DNA from: a virus
Taxonomy: Duplodnaviria; Heunggongvirae; Uroviricota; Caudoviricetes
Virus record (IMG/VR): IMGVR_UViG_2778261464_000003
Coordinates: 1-8,243 of that record
Length of the DNA stretch: 8,243 nt
Strand: one strand, 5' to 3'
Translations under genes and position numbers: made by a program
The notes under the pieces: generated by a model
What the model saw: the letters and a program-made list of their open reading frames with translations, nothing else
Database searches by the model: none
What the model was told of the DNA's origin: nothing
Shown: positions 1-8,243 of the stretch, piece after piece
Position numbering within the stretch: the first letter of the stretch is position 1
Layout of the letters: every line of letters starts with the position of its first letter

Positions 1-26
1 TGTTTAGTTACGAGCGACATTGCTCC

Positions 27-54
27 GTGTATTCACTCGTTGGAATGAATACAC
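27..54. other. Inverted repeat with 9-bp arms (GTGTATTCA / TGAATACAC), 10-nt loop, just beyond the stop of the 99-722 gene
   Basis: Arms at 27-35 and 46-54 are exact reverse complements. A T-rich run follows on the + strand (61-80); no clean U-tract on the - strand. Function is not determinable from sequence. Confidence 0.25.
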
Positions 55-98
55 AGTGCAGTGTTTATTCTGTTGTTAGTGCCAAAAATAAAGGCCGA

Positions 99-722
99 CT
101 ATGCGGACTCGGAAGGAAGTCCAATCATCTTATTCAAATCTTCTACCCGTAAAGCAGGAAGTGCTGTACTTGCTTTGTCTGCTTCTTTTGGTAGCAATTC
201 TTTGCTTTCAGGCCAAACTTCAATAAGTCGCTTAACTGTTGTGACTGAGTTCAAAGCAGCCCATACATTTGATTCGATATCCTTTTTCTTGGCTTCAAGT
301 TTTTGTTGCAATGCGCAGATTTCATCAAACCTTTTTGTTATTTCGTGTTCTGCATCAAACATGCATTTATCTTTGGTTGGAGTAGGGAGCAATATATCTT
401 CGCCGTTGCCGTCTTTCCCATATGAATGCCATCCAACCCTTCTGCCAGATACAGTCAGATAAATTGAAGTAGAACGAACATCGTATGAGTAAAATGAACA
501 TCCCATCTTTTCAAGTTCTTCACTTATAGCTACTAACCTGGATGATAACTGATCCACTTCCTCAGTTTTCTTTTTACCGCCAAACGCAATAACTCTGGCG
601 TCAAGTGCAAGCTGGTTCTTTAACTTTGTTACTTCTTCAAGTTCAGTGAAAACCCCAGACTTAATTAAAGCGTTACGAGCGATTTTCTCTTTCATTCTCG
701 TAGTTAAGCGGATTGATGACAT
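99..722 (-). CDS. Hypothetical early-left (pL operon) protein, 207 aa, charged with coiled-coil-like stretches, no transmembrane segment
   Basis: Long ORF on the same strand as N and immediately downstream of it. The track ORF runs 99-782, but the internal ATG at 722 (MSSIRLTTRMKEK...) is preceded by GAGAGG with 7-nt spacing, whereas the 782 start has no RBS. Stop TAG at 99-101. No family recognised by eye. Confidence 0.6.
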   Translation of the reverse strand: MSSIRLTTRMKEKIARNALIKSGVFTELEEVTKLKNQLALDARVIAFGGKKKTEEVDQLSSRLVAISEELEKMGCSFYSYDVRSTSIYLTVSGRRVGWHSYGKDGNGEDILLPTPTKDKCMFDAEHEITKRFDEICALQQKLEAKKKDIESNVWAALNSVTTVKRLIEVWPESKELLPKEADKASTALPALRVEDLNKMIGLPSESA

Positions 723-783
723 ATTAATTCCTCTCAAATAAGTGGTTTGCTGCCTAATTTTATTTTCTGGCGACCAACACAAG

Positions 784-1056
784 TCATCTTGCTGTCAGTT
801 GTTTGGATTTCCGGTATCCTGCCGCGTAAAGAGCTACGTTCGGAAGACAAGTTGAACCTTCATATTTTCTGGTCAGCGTTGTCAGTGTTATTACTTCTGC
901 TCTCATTGCTGGTTTGCGTTTGCATTGCAAGACCACTCGTGAAGGGGTTGGCCTGTGTAGTTTGTCGGAGCTAATCGCCTCCTGACTTTGCAGGTTTGCT
1001 CGACGAGCTCTACGGCGAGAAGCTGCAGTGCCTTTAAATTCTGTTTTTCTGGACAT
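784..1056 (-). CDS. N: N-like transcription antiterminator (P22 gene 24 type), 90 aa
   Basis: Arginine-rich motif near the N-terminus (GTAASRRRARRANLQ). The C-terminal sequence LPNVALYAAGYRKSKQLTAR closely resembles the P22 gp24 C-terminus as I recall it. Start ATG at 1056 is preceded by GGGAGG with 5-nt spacing; the track start at 1140 has no RBS. Sits downstream of the pL/nutL candidates. Confidence 0.7.
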   Translation of the reverse strand: MSRKTEFKGTAASRRRARRANLQSQEAISSDKLHRPTPSRVVLQCKRKPAMRAEVITLTTLTRKYEGSTCLPNVALYAAGYRKSKQLTAR

Positions 1057-1154
1057 AGATTCCTCCCGAATAAACTCTGGTGATGCAATCTCGAAGCTCC
1101 TCCTGAGACGGTTGCTTCGGCATTGCATCCCACAGCTCATGTGGTTGGGTGATC

Positions 1155-1201
1155 TGGCTTTTCAGCCACGTAGTCGAGTGTTCGACGTTGTTTAAAGAGC
1201 C
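1155..1201 (-). promoter_or_regulatory. nutL-like site: boxA (1186-1201) and boxB hairpin (1155-1168)
   Basis: The - strand reads GGCTCTTTAAACAACG (boxA-like), then a 17-nt spacer, then TGGCT-GAAA-AGCCA (5-bp stem, GAAA loop). Nearly the same arrangement recurs downstream of cro (nutR candidate), which supports both calls. Confidence 0.55.
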
Positions 1202-1246
1202 TGCCAGTCTGTTCCGTTTGGCTTCCAGCGTCCTGCTGACGGTTAA

Positions 1247-1275
1247 ATAGTACGATATGTACTTTATTGGGTCAA
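1247..1275 (-). promoter_or_regulatory. pL-like early-left promoter: -35 TTGACC, 17-bp spacer, -10 TACTAT
   Basis: On the - strand, TTGACC (plus 1270-1275) and TACTAT (plus 1247-1252) are separated by exactly 17 bp. The site is upstream of nutL and N and overlaps the operator-like palindrome. Confidence 0.5.
1249..1263. promoter_or_regulatory. OL operator candidate: 15-bp palindrome AGTACGATATGTACT
   Basis: Near-perfect dyad with half-sites AGTAC(A/G)/TGTACT overlapping the pL -10 and spacer. Related copies occur in the cI-cro intergenic region (3516-3530, 3548-3562). A weaker related copy sits at about 1274-1288. Confidence 0.45.
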
Positions 1276-1464
1276 TACGATTTGTTCTAAAATAGGGTGA
1301 TTTTTTATAACACTTTGTATTTAATAGTGTTGTTTTTTAGCGTGGGTGTATCGCCTCGGCGATGTAAGGAGAGATCAGAATTGCGTGGTTTAGTGAGTTG
1401 TATCTATTTATTTTTCAATAAATACATTTGGTTATGTGTCTTTAGGTGGGGCGTGAGGCAAAGA

Positions 1465-1495
1465 AAACCCGGCGCGGTGGCCGGGTTTATTTATT
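1465..1495 (-). terminator. Intrinsic terminator (timm-like) ending the cI-cassette leftward operon; bidirectional in form
   Basis: 9-bp stem AAACCCGGC (1465-1473) / GCCGGGTTT (1480-1488) with loop GCGGTG. A T-run follows on both strands (minus RNA: hairpin then UUUUCUUUG; plus: UUUAUUUAUU). It directly abuts the stop codon (1491-1493) of the 216-aa gene. Confidence 0.6.
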
Positions 1496-2141
1496 GCTTA
1501 GGAGCTTGTTGTGATGACGATTGGTTAGTTGGAGCGCTCGTTAATGGTTGCTGTGTCGGTACCTGTATTATAATTGGAGCCGGGCTGGTTACTGATGGTG
1601 ACTTGTCATTGCCGGAGATAATCCAACTTGAGGCTAACATCACGCCAGACAGAATCACAGTAACTAAAGTCAAGCCAACGGCCATCGCCCACTGAGTCGT
1701 TGTAAGTCCCGTTTTCAAACCGCCGATTTCACCTTTAATTTCAGCAATACCTCTCTCAATAGAAGAAAATTGCTGAGTATAATAGGTTTTAAAGTCAGCT
1801 GATTCGCGACGCATTTCCGCAGCAATAGACTCTACCTCTGATTTGTTTTGTGAAAGCTTTGCGTCAAGTTCTTCTCTGGACATTCCGCTCACGCTTACCT
1901 CCAGGGTATCACTCTTCATCGCTACATCTTCCTTACTTGGGCGCAAACCCGTTTCGTCCATGGCGTATGAAACTCTATTTGATACCTTAGCATCAATACC
2001 AATACTTTGGTACTGAGATGGATCCCCATAAGGAGAAACGGTTGTCGCTGCTAGGGTTGCACTAACTATAATACTTGGAAGAACTGATGATGTTGTTCCT
2101 GAGGTAGGTTGAACTGAAGAAACTGGCTTCAGTCTTTCCAT
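1491..2141 (-). CDS. Cassette gene 3: 216-aa predicted membrane-anchored coiled-coil protein with a Ser/Thr/Pro/Gln-rich C-terminal tail
   Basis: ORF directly followed by the terminator. N-terminal hydrophobic segment (VLPSIIVSATLAATTV), a charged central region (EELDAKLSQNKSEVESIAAEMRRESADFK...), one clear transmembrane helix (WAMAVGLTLVTVILSGVMLASSWII), then a low-complexity tail. The start at 2141 overlaps the upstream gene stop by 13 nt; a weak AGGGA RBS lies about 9 nt upstream. No family recognised. Confidence 0.6.
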   Translation of the reverse strand: MERLKPVSSVQPTSGTTSSVLPSIIVSATLAATTVSPYGDPSQYQSIGIDAKVSNRVSYAMDETGLRPSKEDVAMKSDTLEVSVSGMSREELDAKLSQNKSEVESIAAEMRRESADFKTYYTQQFSSIERGIAEIKGEIGGLKTGLTTTQWAMAVGLTLVTVILSGVMLASSWIISGNDKSPSVTSPAPIIIQVPTQQPLTSAPTNQSSSQQAPKQ

Positions 2142-2395
2142 AGCCCATTATCCCTGAGAGCTACCTGTAATGATTTTACTAATGCAACAGCTTGATCCGG
2201 GCTCATTGAGACTGACATGTTAGGGGTCAACTCAACTTTTACTTGGAAGCTATTCTTTCCTTGCTCATCAGACTGCATGTGATGCTCAAATTCATGGCGG
2301 TAAAAAGTAATGATTGTTTCAGCACGATCAGGCGTAATAAGAACTGATGTGGCGGTCATGTGCTGAGGTATGATTTTAATAGTGTTATCTGACAT
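2129..2395 (-). CDS. Cassette gene 2: 88-aa hypothetical soluble protein (the track ORF extends to 2536)
   Basis: The ATG at 2395 (MSDNTIKIIPQ...) is preceded by AAAAAGGA with about 6-nt spacing. In-frame ATGs further upstream (2431, 2437, 2536) lack an RBS. Stop at 2129-2131 overlaps the start of gene 3. The start is uncertain; the protein could be up to 135 aa. Confidence 0.5.
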   Translation of the reverse strand: MSDNTIKIIPQHMTATSVLITPDRAETIITFYRHEFEHHMQSDEQGKNSFQVKVELTPNMSVSMSPDQAVALVKSLQVALRDNGLWKD

Positions 2396-2587
2396 AAGTA
2401 TCCTTTTTGTTTCCTTAGTATTTTTTTGCATTGACATCAGAAATAGCGAATCCACAAGAGTATGAGTAAAGCTAATCAGTTTAGTGATACGGTGACTATT
2501 AAAGTGGTAAACCACATCAAAGCTCGCAGAGTGCATACCAGGCTGTCACACATGACAAAGTAACGAGGATGCCTGATCTCATAGCGC

Positions 2588-2743
2588 TCAAAGAGACATG
2601 CCGATAATGGCATTAACCACGCATGACGCCATAAACACGCCGCCAACGATGAAGCTGGCTTGGTTCTTCCTGGTAGCGCCAAGAGTCAACAGAACCACTG
2701 AAAGGGCAAAAAAAGGTATCGCGATTATGCTGAACGTGTTCAT
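2588..2743 (-). CDS. Cassette gene 1: 51-aa small membrane protein with two predicted helices (not in the supplied ORF track)
   Basis: Manual translation of the - strand gives MNTFSIIAIPFFALSVVLLTLGATRKNQASFIVGGVFMASCVVNAIIGMSL. A GAGG RBS lies about 8 nt upstream of the ATG at 2743. Starts 78 nt downstream of the cI stop with no terminator between. Two hydrophobic stretches separated by RKNQ. Confidence 0.45.
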   Translation of the reverse strand: MNTFSIIAIPFFALSVVLLTLGATRKNQASFIVGGVFMASCVVNAIIGMSL

Positions 2744-2820
2744 GTTGACCTCAACTTATTTCGATTCTCCATCACCCTTAATCCGCCGCCCCATGTGTTT
2801 GTTGTGATCCGTTGCTGGCC

Positions 2821-3480
2821 TTAACCAAACGTCTCTTCAGGCCACTGGCTGGCGATAACTTTCCCCACAACGGAACAACTCTCATTGCATGGGATCATTG
2901 GGTACTGTGGGTTTAGTGGTTGTAAAAACACCTGACCGCTATCCCTGATCAGTTTCTTGAAGGTAAACTCATCACCCCCAAGTCTGGCTATGCAGAAATC
3001 ACCTGGCTCAACAGCCTGCTCAGGGTCAACCAGAATTAACATCCCGTCAGGAAAACTAGGTTTGGATCCTGTTGGCGCGGTCATGGAATTACCTTCAACC
3101 TCAAGCCAGAATGCAGAATCACTGGCTTTTTTGGTTGTGCTTACCCATCTCTCCGCATCACCTTTGGTAAAGGTTCTGAGTTCTGGAGAGAACATCCCAG
3201 CCTGAACATGAGAAAAAACAGGGTACTCATATTGTTTTTTAACTGGGGCCGATGAGTATTCGCCAACAGGTGAAAATGTCCCGTCGTGGTTGAATGATAT
3301 GTTATCAATACCAAGGTATTTAAACACCACACCAATATCACTAAGAGATGGATGACGAGATCCGCGCAACCAGTGTCCAATCCCACCCTGCGTCATACCT
3401 AGCTCTTCGGCTAACTTCTCTTGAGTTATGCCGAGCTCTTTCATTCTGGATCTAGCCAGTTCATACCATTTCATTTTCAT
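2821..3480 (-). CDS. cI: cI-type prophage repressor: HTH N-terminal domain plus LexA/S24-like autocleaving C-terminal domain (lambda-type), 219 aa
   Basis: The C-terminal ~130 aa ([30 protein letters not shown]...GNSMT...FKKLIRD...[12 protein letters not shown]) match lambda cI residues about 100-236 as I recall them, including the Ala-Gly cleavage site and Ser/Lys dyad context. The N-terminal ~80 aa are a different HTH domain ([22 protein letters not shown]). Start at 3480 (MKMKWYEL) has AAGGA upstream; the track start at 3522 is probably an upstream extension. Confidence 0.9.
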
Positions 3481-3515
3481 GTCCTTATTATTACGCTCTG
3501 TATTGCAACCATCCA

Positions 3516-3564
3516 TGCACAATGTGTATTTTTACTTGCATTCAAAAAGTACATATTGTATTTT
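3516..3564. promoter_or_regulatory. OR/pR region: two operator-like dyads (3516-3530, 3548-3562) overlapping a pR-like promoter (-35 TTTACT 3531-3536, -10 TATTGT 3554-3559)
   Basis: TGCACAATGTGTATT and AGTACATATTGTATT fit the same pattern as the OL palindrome. The rightward -35/-10 pair has 17-bp spacing and lies about 30 nt upstream of the cro start. pRM (leftward) must lie here too but could not be pinned down. Confidence 0.5.
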
Positions 3565-3590
3565 TTCTTCATGGTTACTATGGAGGGCAT

Positions 3591-3806
3591 ATGAGCAACC
3601 TACGAAAATATCGAGAGTCACTGAATATCTCTCAAACAACACTTGCTAAGGCAGTTGGATGCACACAGGGAGCTATCGGACATTGGGAATCTGGTCGTCG
3701 CTTCCCAGACCTTAAAACATGCCGTGCTCTTGTTGCGTGTCTAAACAAGTTAGGCGCAAAAGTCAGTCTTGATGACGTGTTCCCGCCGGAACACAAAGCC
3801 GCTTAA
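3591..3806 (+). CDS. cro: Cro-like HTH repressor, 71 aa
   Basis: Divergent from cI across the operator region. GGAGGG RBS at 3582-3587. The HTH segment (ISQTTLAKAVGCTQGAIGHWESGRRFP) has a recognition helix nearly identical to the cI N-terminal domain ([15 protein letters not shown]), as expected for proteins sharing operators. The track ORF from 3522 is an upstream extension. Confidence 0.8.
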   Translation: MSNLRKYRESLNISQTTLAKAVGCTQGAIGHWESGRRFPDLKTCRALVACLNKLGAKVSLDDVFPPEHKAA

Positions 3807-3816
3807 TAAGCGGATC

Positions 3817-3862
3817 CGCTCTTTGTAACAACGGACATTCGTCCTACGTCGCTGAAAAGCGA
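3817..3862 (+). promoter_or_regulatory. nutR-like site: boxA (3817-3832, CGCTCTTTGTAACAAC) and boxB hairpin (3849-3862, TCGCT-GAAA-AGCGA)
   Basis: Same boxA core (GCTCTTT..AACAACG), about 16-17 nt spacer and 5-bp stem/GAAA-loop boxB as the nutL candidate on the other strand. Located just downstream of the cro stop. Confidence 0.55.
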
Positions 3863-3937
3863 ATCCCAGAATATCTGACCAACTAAGGCCATATGCGTTT
3901 CCACGCATACCTTTCAACTAACTATTCACTATTGGAA

Positions 3938-3970
3938 ATCTTAAGAAATGGAAAGAACAAGTTACAGCAA
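3938..3970 (-). promoter_or_regulatory. pRE-like cII-activated promoter candidate (TTGC-N6-TTGT flanking the -35, -10 TAAGAT)
   Basis: The - strand reads TTGCTGTAACTTGT (plus 3957-3970, inside the first codons of cII), then a 17-nt spacer, then TAAGAT (plus 3938-3943). This mirrors the lambda pRE layout, where the cII box overlaps the cII start. The second repeat is TTGT, not TTGC. Confidence 0.35.
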
Positions 3971-4244
3971 ACTATCACAGCGTGACGTTGATCGCGCAGA
4001 AACAGATTTACTTATCAATCTGTCAGCTATTACCCAGCGCGGTCTGGCAAAGATGATTGGCTGTCATGAATCGAAGATAAGCAGAACGGACTGGAGATTT
4101 ATTGCTTCGGTCTTGTGTGCTTTCGGAATGGCATCAGACATCAGTCCGATTAGCAGGGCTTTTAAGTATGCGCTTGATGGACTCACAAAGAAAAAATCCC
4201 CGGCCGCCACCGAGGATTTTAAGCAAATTGATATGCAATTCTGA
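3948..4244 (+). CDS. cII: cII-like transcriptional activator, 98 aa
   Basis: HTH region (GLAKMIGCHESKISR) and a C-terminus (KKKSPAATEDFKQIDMQF) closely resembling lambda cII (KKRPAATERSEQIQMEF). Positioned after cro/nutR as in lambda. Confidence 0.85.
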   Translation: MERTSYSKLSQRDVDRAETDLLINLSAITQRGLAKMIGCHESKISRTDWRFIASVLCAFGMASDISPISRAFKYALDGLTKKKSPAATEDFKQIDMQF

Positions 4245-4266
4245 GGGAATTACTGGATCAATCCAC
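4188..4266 (-). ncRNA. oop: OOP-like antisense RNA candidate (~78 nt) overlapping the 3' end of cII
   Basis: On the - strand, an extended -10 promoter TGtCATAAT (plus 4274-4282) lies about 80 nt upstream of an intrinsic terminator inside the cII 3' end (minus RNA: AAAAUCCUCGG-UGGCGG-CCGGGGAUUUU then UUCUUUG; plus 4193-4220). The terminator stem resembles the lambda oop terminator as I recall it. No good -35 found. Ends are approximate. Confidence 0.45.
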
Positions 4267-4276
4267 AGGAGTAATT

Positions 4277-4438
4277 ATGACAAAACGTCGTAAGAAATAC
4301 CAGGAAAAAGAAGAGATTCGACACCCTGATTCACCTGAGGGATTAGTGGTAGCCGCAGCAAATAACAGGGCGTTCGCAGAGCGCCTTGTTGGTGTTTACA
4401 GACTAGCCAAAGCAGGAGTGAAACATGGGCGTCGTTAA
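4277..4438 (+). CDS. Small basic ORF, 53 aa ([53 protein letters not shown]), not in the ORF track
   Basis: Good RBS AGGAG at 4267-4271 with 5-nt spacing to the ATG at 4277. Stop TAA at 4436-4438 overlaps the O start (4425). Fills a 180-nt cII-O gap that is short and non-coding in lambda. Function unknown. Confidence 0.4.
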   Translation: MTKRRKKYQEKEEIRHPDSPEGLVVAAANNRAFAERLVGVYRLAKAGVKHGRR

Positions 4439-5246
4439 GTTAGCTGATTACAGGCCTCAACTTGAGGTCGTGGAGCATCGCGTGGCAGATACCGAAGATG
4501 GTTTCATGCGCGTTGCTAACGAGATTACCGACAGTCTGCTGATGGCTGATTTAACCGTCCGGCAGTTGAAGGTGATGCTCGCTATCATGCGCAAGACATA
4601 CGGATTCAATAAGCCGATGGATCGACTCACAAACACGCAGATAGCAGCCATGACAGGTATTCATCACACTCATGTTTGCGCTGCCAAGCGCCAGCTTATC
4701 GAGCGTAAATTCCTCATTGCTGATGGCGTGAAAATCGGAGTGAACAAGGTGGTTTCGCAGTGGATTAGCCAGGACAGCTTAACATTAGCTAAAACAGCTA
4801 ATAAAACATTAGCCAAGTCGGCTAATGGGTATAAGCCAAGTCAGCTAAACACAAAAGACAATATACAAAAGACAATAAATACAAATACCCCCTTACCCCC
4901 TAACGGGGGCGGCGATGGGCAGGTTAAACCTGAACGTCGCAAGGCAGAACGAATCGACTACGAATCCTTCCTGAACGCCTACAACACCGAAGTCGGTGAC
5001 AGACTGCCACACGCTGTTGCGGTCAACGAGAAACGCAAACGCCGCCTGAAGAAAATCATCCCGCAACTGAAAACGCCAAACGTGGACGGTTTCAGAGCGT
5101 ATGTCAGGGCGTTTGTGCATCAGGCCAAGCCGTTTTACTTCGGAGACAACGACACGGGCTGGACAGCTGATTTTGATTACCTGCTGAGGGAAGATTCGTT
5201 AACGGGAGTACGGGAAGGGAAGTTTGCAGACAGGGGGATTGCATGA
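4425..5246 (+). CDS. O: Replication initiator, lambda O / P22 gene 18 family, 273 aa
   Basis: The N-terminal domain ([15 protein letters not shown]...[38 protein letters not shown]) closely matches the lambda O N-terminal domain as recalled (NVADLDDGYARLSN...ADLTKRQFKVLLAILRKTYGWNKPMDRITDSQLSEIT). RBS AGGAGTG upstream; internal iterons and AT-rich region; stop overlaps the helicase start. Confidence 0.9.
4764..4890. repeat. Origin-like region inside O: four ~18-25-bp iterons (4764-4850) followed by an AT-rich stretch (4851-4890)
   Basis: Direct repeats with the core TTAGC(C/T)A..(G/A)(T/A)C.GCT(A/T)A: ATTAGCCAGGACAGCTTAAC, ATTAGCTAAAACAGCTAAT, ATTAGCCAAGTCGGCTAAT, AAGCCAAGTCAGCTAAAC, each internally dyad-symmetric. 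Then ACAAAAGACAATATACAAAAGACAATAAATACAAATA and a GC hairpin CCCCC-TAAC-GGGGG (4896-4909). Same layout as ori-lambda within the O linker. Confidence 0.6.
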
Positions 5247-6619
5247 GACAGGATATCGAAGCGAGCGTTATCGGTGGCCTGCTGATTGGTGGATTAACAC
5301 CAACCGCCAGCGACGTTCTGGCAACGCTGGAGCCGGAAGCGTTTTCAATTCCGCTCTACCGGAAAGCCTTCGAGGTTATCCGCAAGCAGGCGAGAAACAG
5401 AAACCTAATCGATGCGCTGATGGTTGCCGAGGCGTGCGGAGAGGAGCATTTCACGTCAATCCTGATGACCAGCAAAAACTGCCCGAGTGCCACAAACCTG
5501 AAGGGATATGCCGGAATGGTCGCGGATAACTATCACCGCCGTCTGGTGCTGGAAATCATGGATGAAATGCGTGAACCAATTCAGAGCGGAACCATCGACG
5601 CATCGAGTCAGGCGATGGATGAGCTTGTAAAGCGTCTTTCAGCCATCAGAAAGCCCCGTGACGAGGTTAAACCTGTACGGTTAGGGGAAATCATTACTGA
5701 CTACACTGACACGCTTGACAGGCGTCTGAGGAACGGAGAAGAGTCCGATACCCTGAAGACCGGAATCGAAGAACTTGATGCCATCACCGGAGGGATGAAC
5801 GCGGAAGACCTGGTGATAATCGCTGCTCGTCCTGGTATGGGGAAAACCGAACTGGCGCTGAAGATTGCCGAAGGCGTTGCAAGCCGCGTTATTCCTGGTT
5901 CTGACGTCCGGCGCGGGGTATTGATTTTCTCAATGGAAATGAGCGCATTGCAGATTGCAGAGCGAAGCATTGCCAACGCCGGGAGGATGTCGGTTAGTGT
6001 GCTGCGAAATCCTGCAGCGATGGATGACGAAGGCTGGGCGCGCGTTGCTAACGGCATGAGTCAGCTTGCAGATTTGGATGTATGGGTAGTCGATGCCTCG
6101 CGGTTATCGGTCGAAGAAATACGCTCAATCGCAGAACGGCACAAACAGGAAAATCCAAACCTCTCACTCATCATGGTGGATTATCTTGGCCTGATTGAGA
6201 AGCCGAAAGCAGACCGCAACGACCTCGCAATTGCTCACATCTCCGGAAGCCTGAAGGCGATGGCGAAAGACCTGAAAACGCCCGTTATCTCCCTGAGTCA
6301 GCTTTCGCGCGATGTTGAGAAGCGACCAAACAAACGCCCGACAAACGCAGATTTGCGTGATTCAGGAAGCATTGAACAGGACGCAGACTCAATCATCATG
6401 CTCTATCGGGAAGCGGTATATGACGAGAACAGTAGCGCCGCGCCATTTGCTGAAATCATCGTAACGAAAAACCGTTTTGGCTCGCTTGGTACGGTTTACC
6501 AGCGGTTCTGCAACGGACACTTTGTTGCATGTGACCAGGATGAAGCCAGACAGATTTGCACAACATCAAATGCACCTGCTGCACGTGGCAGACGATATGC
6601 ACAAGGGGCTGACGTATGA
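5243..6619 (+). CDS. DnaB-family replicative helicase (P22 gene 12 type), 458 aa
   Basis: Walker [10 protein letters not shown], DnaB-like motifs [45 protein letters not shown] overlap with the O stop. The length equals what I recall for P22 gp12. Confidence 0.9.
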
Positions 6620-6644
6620 CCATCTACATCACTGAGCTTGTAAC

Positions 6645-6676
6645 AGGCCTGCTGGTAATCGCAGGCCTTTTTATTT
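6645..6676 (+). terminator. Intrinsic terminator (tR2-like) between the helicase and ninB
   Basis: Perfect 8-bp stem AGGCCTGC (6645-6652) / GCAGGCCT (6661-6668), 8-nt loop, followed by TTTTATTT (6669-6676). Confidence 0.6.
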
Positions 6677-6692
6677 GGGGGAGAGGGAAGTC

Positions 6693-7133
6693 ATGAAAAA
6701 ACTAACCTTTGAAATTCGATCTCCAGCACATCAGCAAAACGCTATTCACGCGGTACAGCAAATTCTTCCAGACCCAACCAAACCAATCGTAGTAACCATT
6801 CAGGAGCGCAACCGCAGCTTAGACCAAAATCGGAAGCTTTGGGCTTGCCTTGGTGACGTTTCGCGTCAGGTTGAATGGCATGGTCGCTGGCTGGATGCAG
6901 AAAGCTGGAAGTGTGTGTTTACCGCAGCATTAAAGCAGCAGGACGTTGTTCCTAACCTTGCCGGGAATGGCTTTGTGGTAATAGGCCAGTCAACCAGCAG
7001 GATGCGTGTAAGCGAATTTGCGGAGCTATTAGAGCTTATACAGGCATTCGGTACAGAGCGTGGCGTTAAGTGGTCAGACGAAGCGCGACTAGCTCTCGAA
7101 TGGAAAGCGCGATGGGGAGATCGGGCTGCATGA
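6693..7133 (+). CDS. ninB: NinB (Orf-family recombination protein), 146 aa
   Basis: The protein from MKKLTFEIRSPAHQQNAIHAVQQILPDPTKPIVVTIQERNRSLDQNRKLWACLGD... matches lambda NinB almost residue for residue as recalled. RBS GGGAGAGGGAAG upstream of the ATG at 6693; the track start at 6675 is an extension. Confidence 0.9.
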   Translation: MKKLTFEIRSPAHQQNAIHAVQQILPDPTKPIVVTIQERNRSLDQNRKLWACLGDVSRQVEWHGRWLDAESWKCVFTAALKQQDVVPNLAGNGFVVIGQSTSRMRVSEFAELLELIQAFGTERGVKWSDEARLALEWKARWGDRAA

Positions 7134-7657
7134 CTATCAAATCAAATACGGCAGCACACGACAAGGACTGCTGGCAAACGCCGCTTTGGCTTTTTGATGC
7201 ACTGGATATTGAGTTTGGATTCTGGCTGGATTCGGCAGCGAGCGACAAAAATGCTCTGTGCGCTCACTGGCTAACTGAGGCCGACGACGCACTCAATTCT
7301 GAGTGGATAAGCCACGGTGCAATCTGGAATAACCCACCGTACAGCAATATCAGGCCGTGGGTGGAAAAAGCCGCTGAGCAGTGCATACAACAGCGACAGA
7401 CGGTAGTTATGCTTGTGCCAGAGGATATGTCAGTCGGATGGTTCAGCAAGGCTCTGGAGAGTGTCGACGAAGTTCGCATTATCACTGATGGACGGATTAA
7501 TTTTATCGAACCATCGACAGGGCTGGAGAAGAAGGGAAACAGCAAAGGCTCCATGCTGCTGATTTGGCGACCGTTCATCAGTCCTCGACGGATGTTTACT
7601 ACCGTATCCAAAGCGGCATTGATGGCGATCGGGCAGGGCGTCAGGAGGGCGGCATGA
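7130..7657 (+). CDS. Phage Dam-type DNA N6-adenine methyltransferase, 175 aa
   Basis: Start MTIKSNT at 7130 (ATGA overlap with the ninB stop). Motifs [25 protein letters not shown] and IWNNPPYS (NPPY catalytic motif) are typical of the small phage Dam family. The track start at 7070 is an in-frame extension inside ninB. Confidence 0.75.
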
Positions 7658-7830
7658 GGCGACAGCGACGAAGTTTCACCGACATCATCTGCGAAAACTG
7701 CAAATACCTTCCAACGAAACGCTCCAGAAATAAACGCAAGCCAATCCCAAAAGAATCTGACGTAAAAACCTTCAATTACACAGCTCACCTGTGGGATATC
7801 CGGTGGCTAAGATATCGTGCGAGGAAATGA
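7654..7830 (+). CDS. ninE: NinE-family protein, 58 aa
   Basis: [58 protein letters not shown] matches lambda/P22 NinE as recalled. RBS AGGAGGG at 7643-7649; ATGA overlap with the methyltransferase stop. The track start at 7564 is an extension. Confidence 0.75.
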
Positions 7831-8174
7831 CAATGGATTATTCACAGTTAAGTGATTTTGAAATTAACAGAATGGTAGGAGACATAATTTTTAAAGGCCT
7901 TTGGGCAAGTAAACCGGAAACATCAGGGAATAACACCAACAAATGGTATTACGGAAATGCTGATACAACTTTTGAGCCATTAAATCATTTTCCTGACTAC
8001 TGCAATGATCCGAGCGCTTCATGGCCGATTATTGAGAAATACAGGATTTCTATCTTAGACCAGTTAACTGAATGGTGTGTGGATGCAAAAGGCGTAAGCC
8101 CAATATTTGATACCAGACCTCTCCGCGCCGCCATGATTGTCTTTCTCCTGATGCAGGAGGCCAATAATGCTTAG
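7827..8174 (+). CDS. nin-region hypothetical protein (possibly NinX-like), about 115 aa
   Basis: ORF in the nin gene array between ninE and ninF. Start is either ATG 7827 (ATGA overlap with the ninE stop, like every other junction here) or ATG 7833 (better spacing from GAGGAA at 7821-7826). The NinX assignment is by position only. Confidence 0.6.
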
Positions 8175-8243
8175 CCCATCCCAAACCCTTCAATACCAGA
8201 AAGAAAGCGTCGAGCGAGCTTTAACGTGCGCTAACTGCGGTCA
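8167..8243 (+). CDS. ninF: NinF, N-terminal fragment (continues past the window end)
   Basis: [25 protein letters not shown] matches the lambda NinF N-terminus as recalled. RBS AGGAGG at 8155-8160. The ORF is still open at 8243. Confidence 0.75.

Follow-up and report, generated by a model that had tools for sequence, protein, structure and literature searches.

A natural hybrid cI repressor with a Nil2-type DNA-binding head and the C-terminal domain of phage lambda

Introduction

Lambdoid phages can swap their immunity as one unit and retain their other functions, as in the lambda imm434 and lambda imm21 hybrids, and the domains of the repressor are functionally separable. Mosaic boundaries at domain junctions, reportedly described in these phages by Juhala et al. 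in 2000, are textbook material. The imm434 and imm21 hybrids, like the lambda-186 hybrid repressor (PDB 7jvt), are laboratory or engineered swaps, whereas the exchange analyzed here is natural, recurrent and based on homology within the repressor gene. In phages 434 and P22 the repressor head and Cro are paralogous HTH_3 proteins with nearly the same recognition helix, as they are here, and act on common operators, as is predicted here; the 434 and P22 C2 heads have a marginal similarity to the head described below (E 0.25-0.5), and their repressors carry no lambda tail.

The combination of a different head with a lambda-type tail is already known: such hybrids are real, common in E. coli, present in many sequenced phages and in the literature since 2000. 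[quoted passage not shown] The cI mosaic is not mentioned in PMC3430580, PMC3064807 or PMC3694055. What we add is the exact position of the breakpoints in one such hybrid, a second recombination linker, an independent crossover in a prophage of E. coli F404 and a contrast in diversity between head and tail.

The window, by which we mean the whole stretch of DNA analyzed, comprises 8,243 nucleotides of a virus of the Caudoviricetes (IMG/VR record IMGVR_UViG_2778261464_000003, positions 1 to 8,243). A sequence-only reading of this DNA had proposed that its repressor is a mosaic in which a lambda-type C-terminal domain is fused to a DNA-binding domain of another origin, and the analysis below follows up that proposal.

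Results and Discussion

The cI gene and its two domains

The cI gene lies in a lambdoid early region, with cII (3948-4244), an O-type initiator and a DnaB-type helicase to its right and, to its left, an accessory cassette followed by N and then by a protein with an Nmad5 domain (Table 1). The cI reading frame is on the minus strand, its stop codon ends at 2821, and the encoded protein begins MKMKWYEL; an alternative start is possible at 3474. Automatic annotation (PGAP and others) calls a protein of 231 aa that starts at 3516, the additional part being 3481-3516. This extension of 36 nt, or 12 aa, overlaps OR3, takes in two bases of OR2 and has no conserved counterpart in the homologues, which begin at MK(T/M)xW. 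Judged from these features, a start giving 219 or 217 aa is more likely than the 231-aa start.

Pfam searches place an HTH_3 domain at residues 10-57 (E 1.9e-10) and a Peptidase_S24 domain at residues 86-208 (E 6.4e-29). An AlphaFold (AF2) model of the head, built with 20 homologues, has a pLDDT of about 79-92 over residues 1-80 and consists of four helices followed by a beta-hairpin, with neither an N-terminal arm nor a counterpart of lambda helix 5. When a model of the full-length protein was used in a fold search, lambda cI and LexA were matched through the tail and the head received no classification of its own. The hallmarks of an autocleavable repressor of the LexA/S24 family are all present, namely an N-terminal HTH, a Ser-Lys dyad and an Ala-Gly bond, the last within the motif VQAGMF, which is the same in lambda. 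The protein also has the surroundings of a lambda-type repressor, with tripartite OR and OL (predicted sites) and a divergent cro. We put at roughly 90% the probability that this cI is a working lambda-family repressor made of two modules with separate histories.

Table 1. Coordinates of the features of the window that are discussed in the text.
Feature	Position	Strand	Details
cI repressor gene	2821..3480	-	219 aa from ATG at 3480
N-terminal DNA-binding domain (head), residues 1-83	3232..3480	-	HTH_3; AF2 model; Nil2/VT2-Sakai immunity type
Predicted recognition helix TQGGIGHW, residues 30-37	3370..3393	-	Sequence and model (helix 31-38)
C-terminal cleavage-site, oligomerisation and S24 autopeptidase domain (tail), residues 84-219	2824..3231	-	Lambda cI 102-237
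Ala94-Gly95	3196..3201	-	Equivalent to lambda Ala111-Gly112 scissile bond
Ser132	3085..3087	-	Equivalent to lambda cI catalytic Ser149
Lys175	2956..2958	-	Equivalent to lambda cI catalytic Lys192
OR, three 17-bp operators (predicted)	3489..3563		OR3 3489-3505, OR2 3515-3531, OR1 3547-3563; AP005153 annotation and pattern search
OL, three 17-bp operators (predicted)	1248..1322		OL1 1248-1264, OL2 1273-1289, OL3 1306-1322; AP005153 annotation and pattern search
cro, all-helical HTH_3	3591..3806	+	71 aa; paralogue of cI head; helix TQGAIGHW 3663-3686
Crossover interval, 31 bp	3147..3177		Codons 102-112; HK97-type left, Stx-phage-type right
HK97-type block	1488..3177		Most of cI tail plus accessory cassette in rex position
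Conserved block	1444..1488		Common to lambda, HK97 and Stx phages; left crossover of HK97-type block here
51-aa strongly hydrophobic ORF	2588-2743	-	Directly downstream of cI, lambda rexA position
HK97 gp49-like ORF	2129-2536	-	rex slot
HK97 gp48-like ORF	1491-2141	-	rex slot; C-terminal hydrophobic segment
Nmad5 ('nucleotide modification associated domain 5') protein	99-782	-	E 5e-72; just beyond N

The tail is phage lambda's own sequence

The sequence-only reading had likened the protein to lambda cI from about residue 90 onward. The likeness turned out to be complete: residues 84-219, including the Ala-Gly site, are 100% identical to lambda cI at the amino acid level. The corresponding DNA (2825-3231, 407 nt) differs from that of lambda at 14 positions, all of them synonymous, which amounts to an identity of 96.6%. 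Pairwise alignment with lambda cI, protein and DNA, placed the junction at nt 3231/3232, where identity to lambda, taken over 30 nt at a time, drops from 0.9-1.0 to 0.13-0.37. This is the first base of the Tyr84 codon, so that the join lies between residues 83 and 84, at the end of the inter-domain linker and thus near the hinge, as had been suggested. The homology to lambda ends on its other side at the cI stop codon, downstream of which lambda has rexA and the window has different DNA.

The tail is also 100% identical to lambda C-terminal domains of known structure. Chain 8gmu, the lambda repressor on a RecA filament, spans exactly residues 84-219 of the window cI. Its chain A has Ala at the position of Lys175, and entries 2ho0 and 2hnf are named K192A; apart from this engineered change of Lys192 to Ala, the residues of the 8gmu chain are identical to those of the cI tail. 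The window cI has unchanged the cleavage site and the catalytic dyad of lambda cI, the surfaces through which lambda cI forms dimers, tetramers and octamers, and the region with which it docks on RecA.

The head and Cro belong to the Nil2/VT2-Sakai immunity type

A comparison of the head alone, which the sequence-only reading had put forward as a way of finding the donor immunity, gave a clear answer: the head is of the Nil2/Stx-phage type. It is 100% identical in amino acid sequence to the heads of Nil2, 1717, 2851, YYZ-2008, AP005153 and Stx2 II, and likewise to those of the non-Stx phages 2B8, ev207, 2G7b and PhiR57_1; the VT2-Sakai cI head is 98.8% identical. The next relatives are found in Salmonella P22-like phages (about 52% identity). 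Over the whole cI gene, DNA identity is 97.3% to Nil2, 1717, 2851, YYZ-2008, AP005153, Stx2 II and many O157 Stx2a phages.

By contrast, the lambda head is only 26% identical to that of the window, which is 18 residues shorter. A stretch running across helices 2-3, ELG-(L/I)-(S/T)-QE...GM.Q.G.G, is better conserved, and lambda chain 1lli is matched with an E-value of about 5e-4. In our own reading of the alignment, the lambda positive-control residues Glu34 and Asp38 align with Glu21 and Glu25, acidic residues of helix 2. The first 80 or so residues had been called a distinct HTH domain; this stands in the sense that the head represents a different immunity type, and needs amending in that its sequence still marks it as a distant homologue of the lambda head rather than an unrelated domain.

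The recognition helix is common to cI and Cro, as had been pointed out, with one difference between the two (TQGGIGHW versus TQGAIGHW). The relationship extends well beyond this helix, Cro and the cI head being 35% identical over 62 aa (pairwise E 9e-13). A homologue of this Cro has been solved (28tn, E 4.5e-17). The Cro of the window is an all-helical HTH_3 protein and does not have the lambda Cro fold. The cro gene is 99.1% identical to that of AP005153. The window thus has the head, the operators and the Cro of the Nil2/VT2-Sakai/Stx2-II immunity group, and has neither the lambda head nor the lambda operators that define imm lambda. The Stx phages and related lambdoids of the Nil2 group share with the window the head, the operator set, Cro and the lambda-type hybrid architecture; the cassette downstream of their cI differs from that of the window.

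Predicted operators and the OR region

Six operators were mapped from the 'putative operators' annotated in AP005153, with 0-2 mismatches in the window: three are identical, two are one base off and one is two bases off. They cluster three and three in the intergenic regions where they are expected, between cI and cro and next to N. The consensus of their half-sites is A-R-T-A-C-A. A pattern search of the window allowing up to two mismatches returned eight matches, six of which are the mapped operators, a figure that is partly circular because the consensus came from the sites themselves. The other two matches overlap at 48-69, with two mismatches each, and are distant from both OL and OR. Most of their length falls within window 1-59, where the DNA is 100% identical to that of HK97, a phage of different immunity; these two matches probably arose by chance. 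No lambda operators were found in the window with up to three mismatches allowed, and the window OR aligns with lambda OR at 43% identity.

The arrangement of the operators also departs from that of lambda. Centre-to-centre distances are 32/26 bp in OR and 25/33 bp in OL, compared with 24/23 and 24/20 in lambda, and the patterns of OR and OL are not mirror images of one another. As these spacings are unlike lambda's, either the geometry of cooperative binding through the identical tail must differ or the different linker absorbs the change. Lambda-like cooperative binding via the shared tail can therefore not simply be assumed from the predicted sites.

A simple consensus promoter scan did not recover PR or PRM. 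By eye, the hexamer TTGCAT at 3536-3541 would be the -35 element of PR, an assignment that no tool result supports and that was dropped. The spacer and promoter region of OR (3503-3571) contains nine differences from the Stx1-converting phage (AP005153): two at the edge of OR3 (3503 and 3506), a cluster at 3539-3546 between OR2 and OR1, and two at 3567-3571. The cluster sits where the -35 element of PR is expected; on either side of the region, the cI head and cro match AP005153 at 99-100% identity. These differences may tune promoter strength.

A crossover inside the tail and an HK97-type block

To map crossovers, the window was aligned with HK97, AP005153 and lambda and the informative sites were scored. 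From 2399 to 3146 all of the 337-339 informative sites are HK97-type, and 2413-3177 is identical to HK97 base by base; from 3178 on, almost all informative sites are of the Stx-phage type, and 3147-3480 matches the Stx-phage allele at 99.7% with a single difference. The switch between the two parental types thus falls within 31 bp, about 55-85 bp inside the shared tail. The tail allele of AP005153 has 17 substitutions relative to the window, one of which exchanges Trp112 and Leu; the two differ because 2821-3146 of the window is the HK97 allele.

The HK97-type block extends leftward through the cassette. At 1488-1698 every informative site is HK97-type, the base-by-base identity mentioned above covering 2413-3177 only. 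To the left of a conserved block at about 1444-1487, OL and the N-proximal DNA are again Stx-phage-type. The right part of this block contains a GC-rich hairpin (1465-1488) followed by a run of T on both strands; the minus-strand RNA folds with -19.1 kcal/mol (z -3.9). The sequence around the hairpin is 88% identical in lambda and is conserved in HK97 and the Stx phages as well. From its sequence, the hairpin, which stands at the left end of the rex-position cassette and looks like a terminator in either direction, probably ends transcription of the leftward cI operon; the block around it probably serves as the left recombination linker.

HK97 itself, as far as its sequence tells, carries lambda immunity: in alignment its cI has two residue differences from lambda cI, and lambda operators can be read in its OR and OL. 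The most recent event in the history of the window would then have joined an HK97-type segment (about 1488-3177) to an immunity unit of the Nil2 type. A single double crossover, at 3147-3177 and in the terminator block around 1444-1487, would have brought the rex-position cassette and most of the tail-coding DNA into a phage with Nil2-type immunity. That the HK97-type block is the most recent import is indicated by the 100% identity of 2413-3177 to HK97, against 94-97% in the other matched segments.

The opposite polarity, in which an HK97-like phage of lambda immunity was the recipient and gained the Nil2-type immunity determinants, deserves weighing, since HK97 is the best overall match of the window (73% coverage, 97.6% identity) and also matches it to the right of cro (3816-7827, about 97%). 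Phage 2851, however, matches the right-hand region equally well (97.5%), and the HK97-type block is flanked on both sides by Nil2-type DNA, OL (1248-1322) on one side and the head-OR-cro unit on the other. An HK97-like recipient would for this reason require two replacements and four breakpoints in place of one double crossover, and the higher identity of 2413-3177 again speaks for the block as the newcomer. We therefore consider an HK97-like recipient unlikely and prefer a Nil2-type recipient that took up the HK97-type block.

The hybrid recurs in other genomes

The hinge region had been described as a classic recombination point. Three observations bear this out: the crossover at 3147-3177 in the window, another between the same two parental types at 2846-2901 in a prophage on the complete chromosome of E. 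coli F404, and the occurrence of three head types on tails that are at least 97% identical. The positions of the crossovers widen the original statement, in that exchanges occur by homologous recombination anywhere in the shared tail of about 400 bp and not just at the hinge. The hinge marks the end of the homology, and there is a second mosaic boundary at the stop codon.

The exact 231-aa annotated protein is encoded on at least 24 contigs. A contig of 5.02 Mb (GCA_902810155.1) is 100% identical to window 1-7516, and three further assemblies are 99.75-99.96% identical to the window. Elsewhere the cI-cro-cII unit is flanked by four downstream cassettes and four replication modules, and in assemblies with other cassettes the similarity to the window begins exactly at 2821/2825. 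Such recurrence makes it very improbable that the hybrid is an assembly chimera of two co-resident prophages joined at the shared tail. The location of the junction, in 31 bp identical in both parents and within a repeat of about 400 bp present in up to three copies per E. coli genome, is just where a misassembly might occur; but the same arrangement is found on the 5.02-Mb contig and in the three nearly identical assemblies, the same head sits on a lambda-type tail in dozens of finished phage genomes, and F404 has a different crossover point in a complete chromosome.

Among loci that encode the identical protein, there were no differences in the 285 nt comprising the head and the 36-nt upstream extension, whereas the DNA encoding the tail (411 nt) had 0-24 (Fisher p 5e-6 to 3e-4). 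One of these tails (L011) is 2 nt away from lambda's own allele. With an invariant head and a variable tail at the DNA level, it follows that a single, young haplotype of the head has been combined with several tail alleles of greater age. The differences in L005-L012 are all synonymous, partly by construction because the loci were retrieved by exact protein identity; dN/dS from this set was for the same reason rejected as evidence of selection, and the diversity contrast was used instead.

A search of the Enterobacteriaceae with the tail only gave a graded family of 99-60% identity. At least three types of head occur on lambda-type tails, type A (lambda), type B (the window) and type C, which begins MKTMHEIIGERIKS; identity between the types is mostly about 25-35%. 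In 26 pairs of proteins with heads of different type, the tails show identities of 97% or more, and the identity of heads correlates poorly with that of tails (r 0.23). That heads of unrelated type sit on such similar tails in many independent pairs indicates that shuffling at the hinge is recurrent. In protein P0040 the switch to the lambda tail comes only past the cleavage-site region, which is another junction. Of 5426 complete E. coli genomes, 776 have the head-OR-cro module; the tail DNA was found at 1436 places in 1212 E. coli genomes, with up to three per genome.

The idea that cI is an ordinary S24 repressor, diverged uniformly from lambda's and resembling it at the level of the family only, draws on the distant homology of the heads (1lli), which makes one broad family of them, and is practically negligible given a tail at 100% (protein) and 96.6% (DNA) beside a head at 26% with DNA identity at chance, a step between them within a few bases, and a search of solved structures in which the lambda repressor scored E 3.5e-98 and LexA and UmuD chains 1e-6 to 7e-3.

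A proposed working of the hybrid repressor

Our explanation builds on the domains, identities, breakpoints, operator sequences and recurrence observed above; operator binding, cooperativity, PRM activation and RecA-dependent induction we infer for this cI by analogy with lambda. Dimers of the head would bind the six 17-bp operators, three in OR and three in OL, through the ARTACA half-site. Bound there, cI would repress PR and PL and probably regulate PRM, and Cro, as a paralogue of the head, would compete for the same sites. Since the tail is lambda's own, it can be expected to provide dimerisation, cooperative binding and docking on the RecA filament. RecA-stimulated self-cleavage would then take place at Ala94-Gly95 through Ser132 and Lys175, as in lambda cI.

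The near-identity of about 400 bp, which begins with the Tyr84 codon (3231) and extends as far as the stop codon, is common to phages of different immunity, and homologous recombination within this tail DNA re-assorts the head-OR-cro unit on one side with the rex-position cassette on the other. The locus is a clear natural example of how temperate phages alter their immunity without rebuilding the induction machinery. The half of the repressor that acts in sensing and oligomerisation is near-invariant as a protein, and its DNA offers homologous recombination a landing pad, which also allows the accessory genes beside the repressor to be swapped. As Nil2-type immunity occurs in many Shiga-toxin phages, the question of which prophages share repressor tails bears on their co-induction and on toxin release.

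Heteroimmune prophages in one cell often have the same tail, with up to three copies of the tail DNA in one E. coli genome, and their repressors may mix. We offer only as a tentative and rather doubtful suggestion that co-resident heteroimmune repressors with the same tail form mixed dimers or higher oligomers and so cross-talk. If they did, mixed oligomers would link the immunity and induction of prophages in the same cell, or weaken them, and could underlie the cross-immunity of lambda and VT2-Sa reported by Fattah et al. Selection on the shared tail would in that case have two targets, the protein interface and the linker for recombination.

Neighboring genes

Outside the repressor, a sequence at 4252-4284, ACTGGATCAATCCACAGGAGTAATTATGACAAA, matches the conserved motif of the oop promoter and 5' end quoted in PMC3349717, and the start of a 53-aa ORF (4277-4438, phrog_1331) falls within it. 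An Rfam scan of the whole window gave no family at threshold, at this motif or elsewhere.

The gene for the Nmad5 protein is present in some related prophages, and other genes replace it in others. A PADLOC scan of this protein and of the rex-position cassette gave nothing significant. In the rex slot, the gp49-like and gp48-like ORFs have PHROGs matches of unknown function only (phrog_26809 and phrog_5820). Other assemblies have in this slot a 345-aa ORF, a pair of 146 and 118 aa, or a 339-aa CbiA/AAA_31 protein. The short ORF directly downstream of cI had no match in Pfam, PHROG or PADLOC. Its DNA matches HK97 at 100% identity, and the gene calls of a related assembly (L008) include it; the product may be a small membrane protein that lysogens make from the repressor operon.
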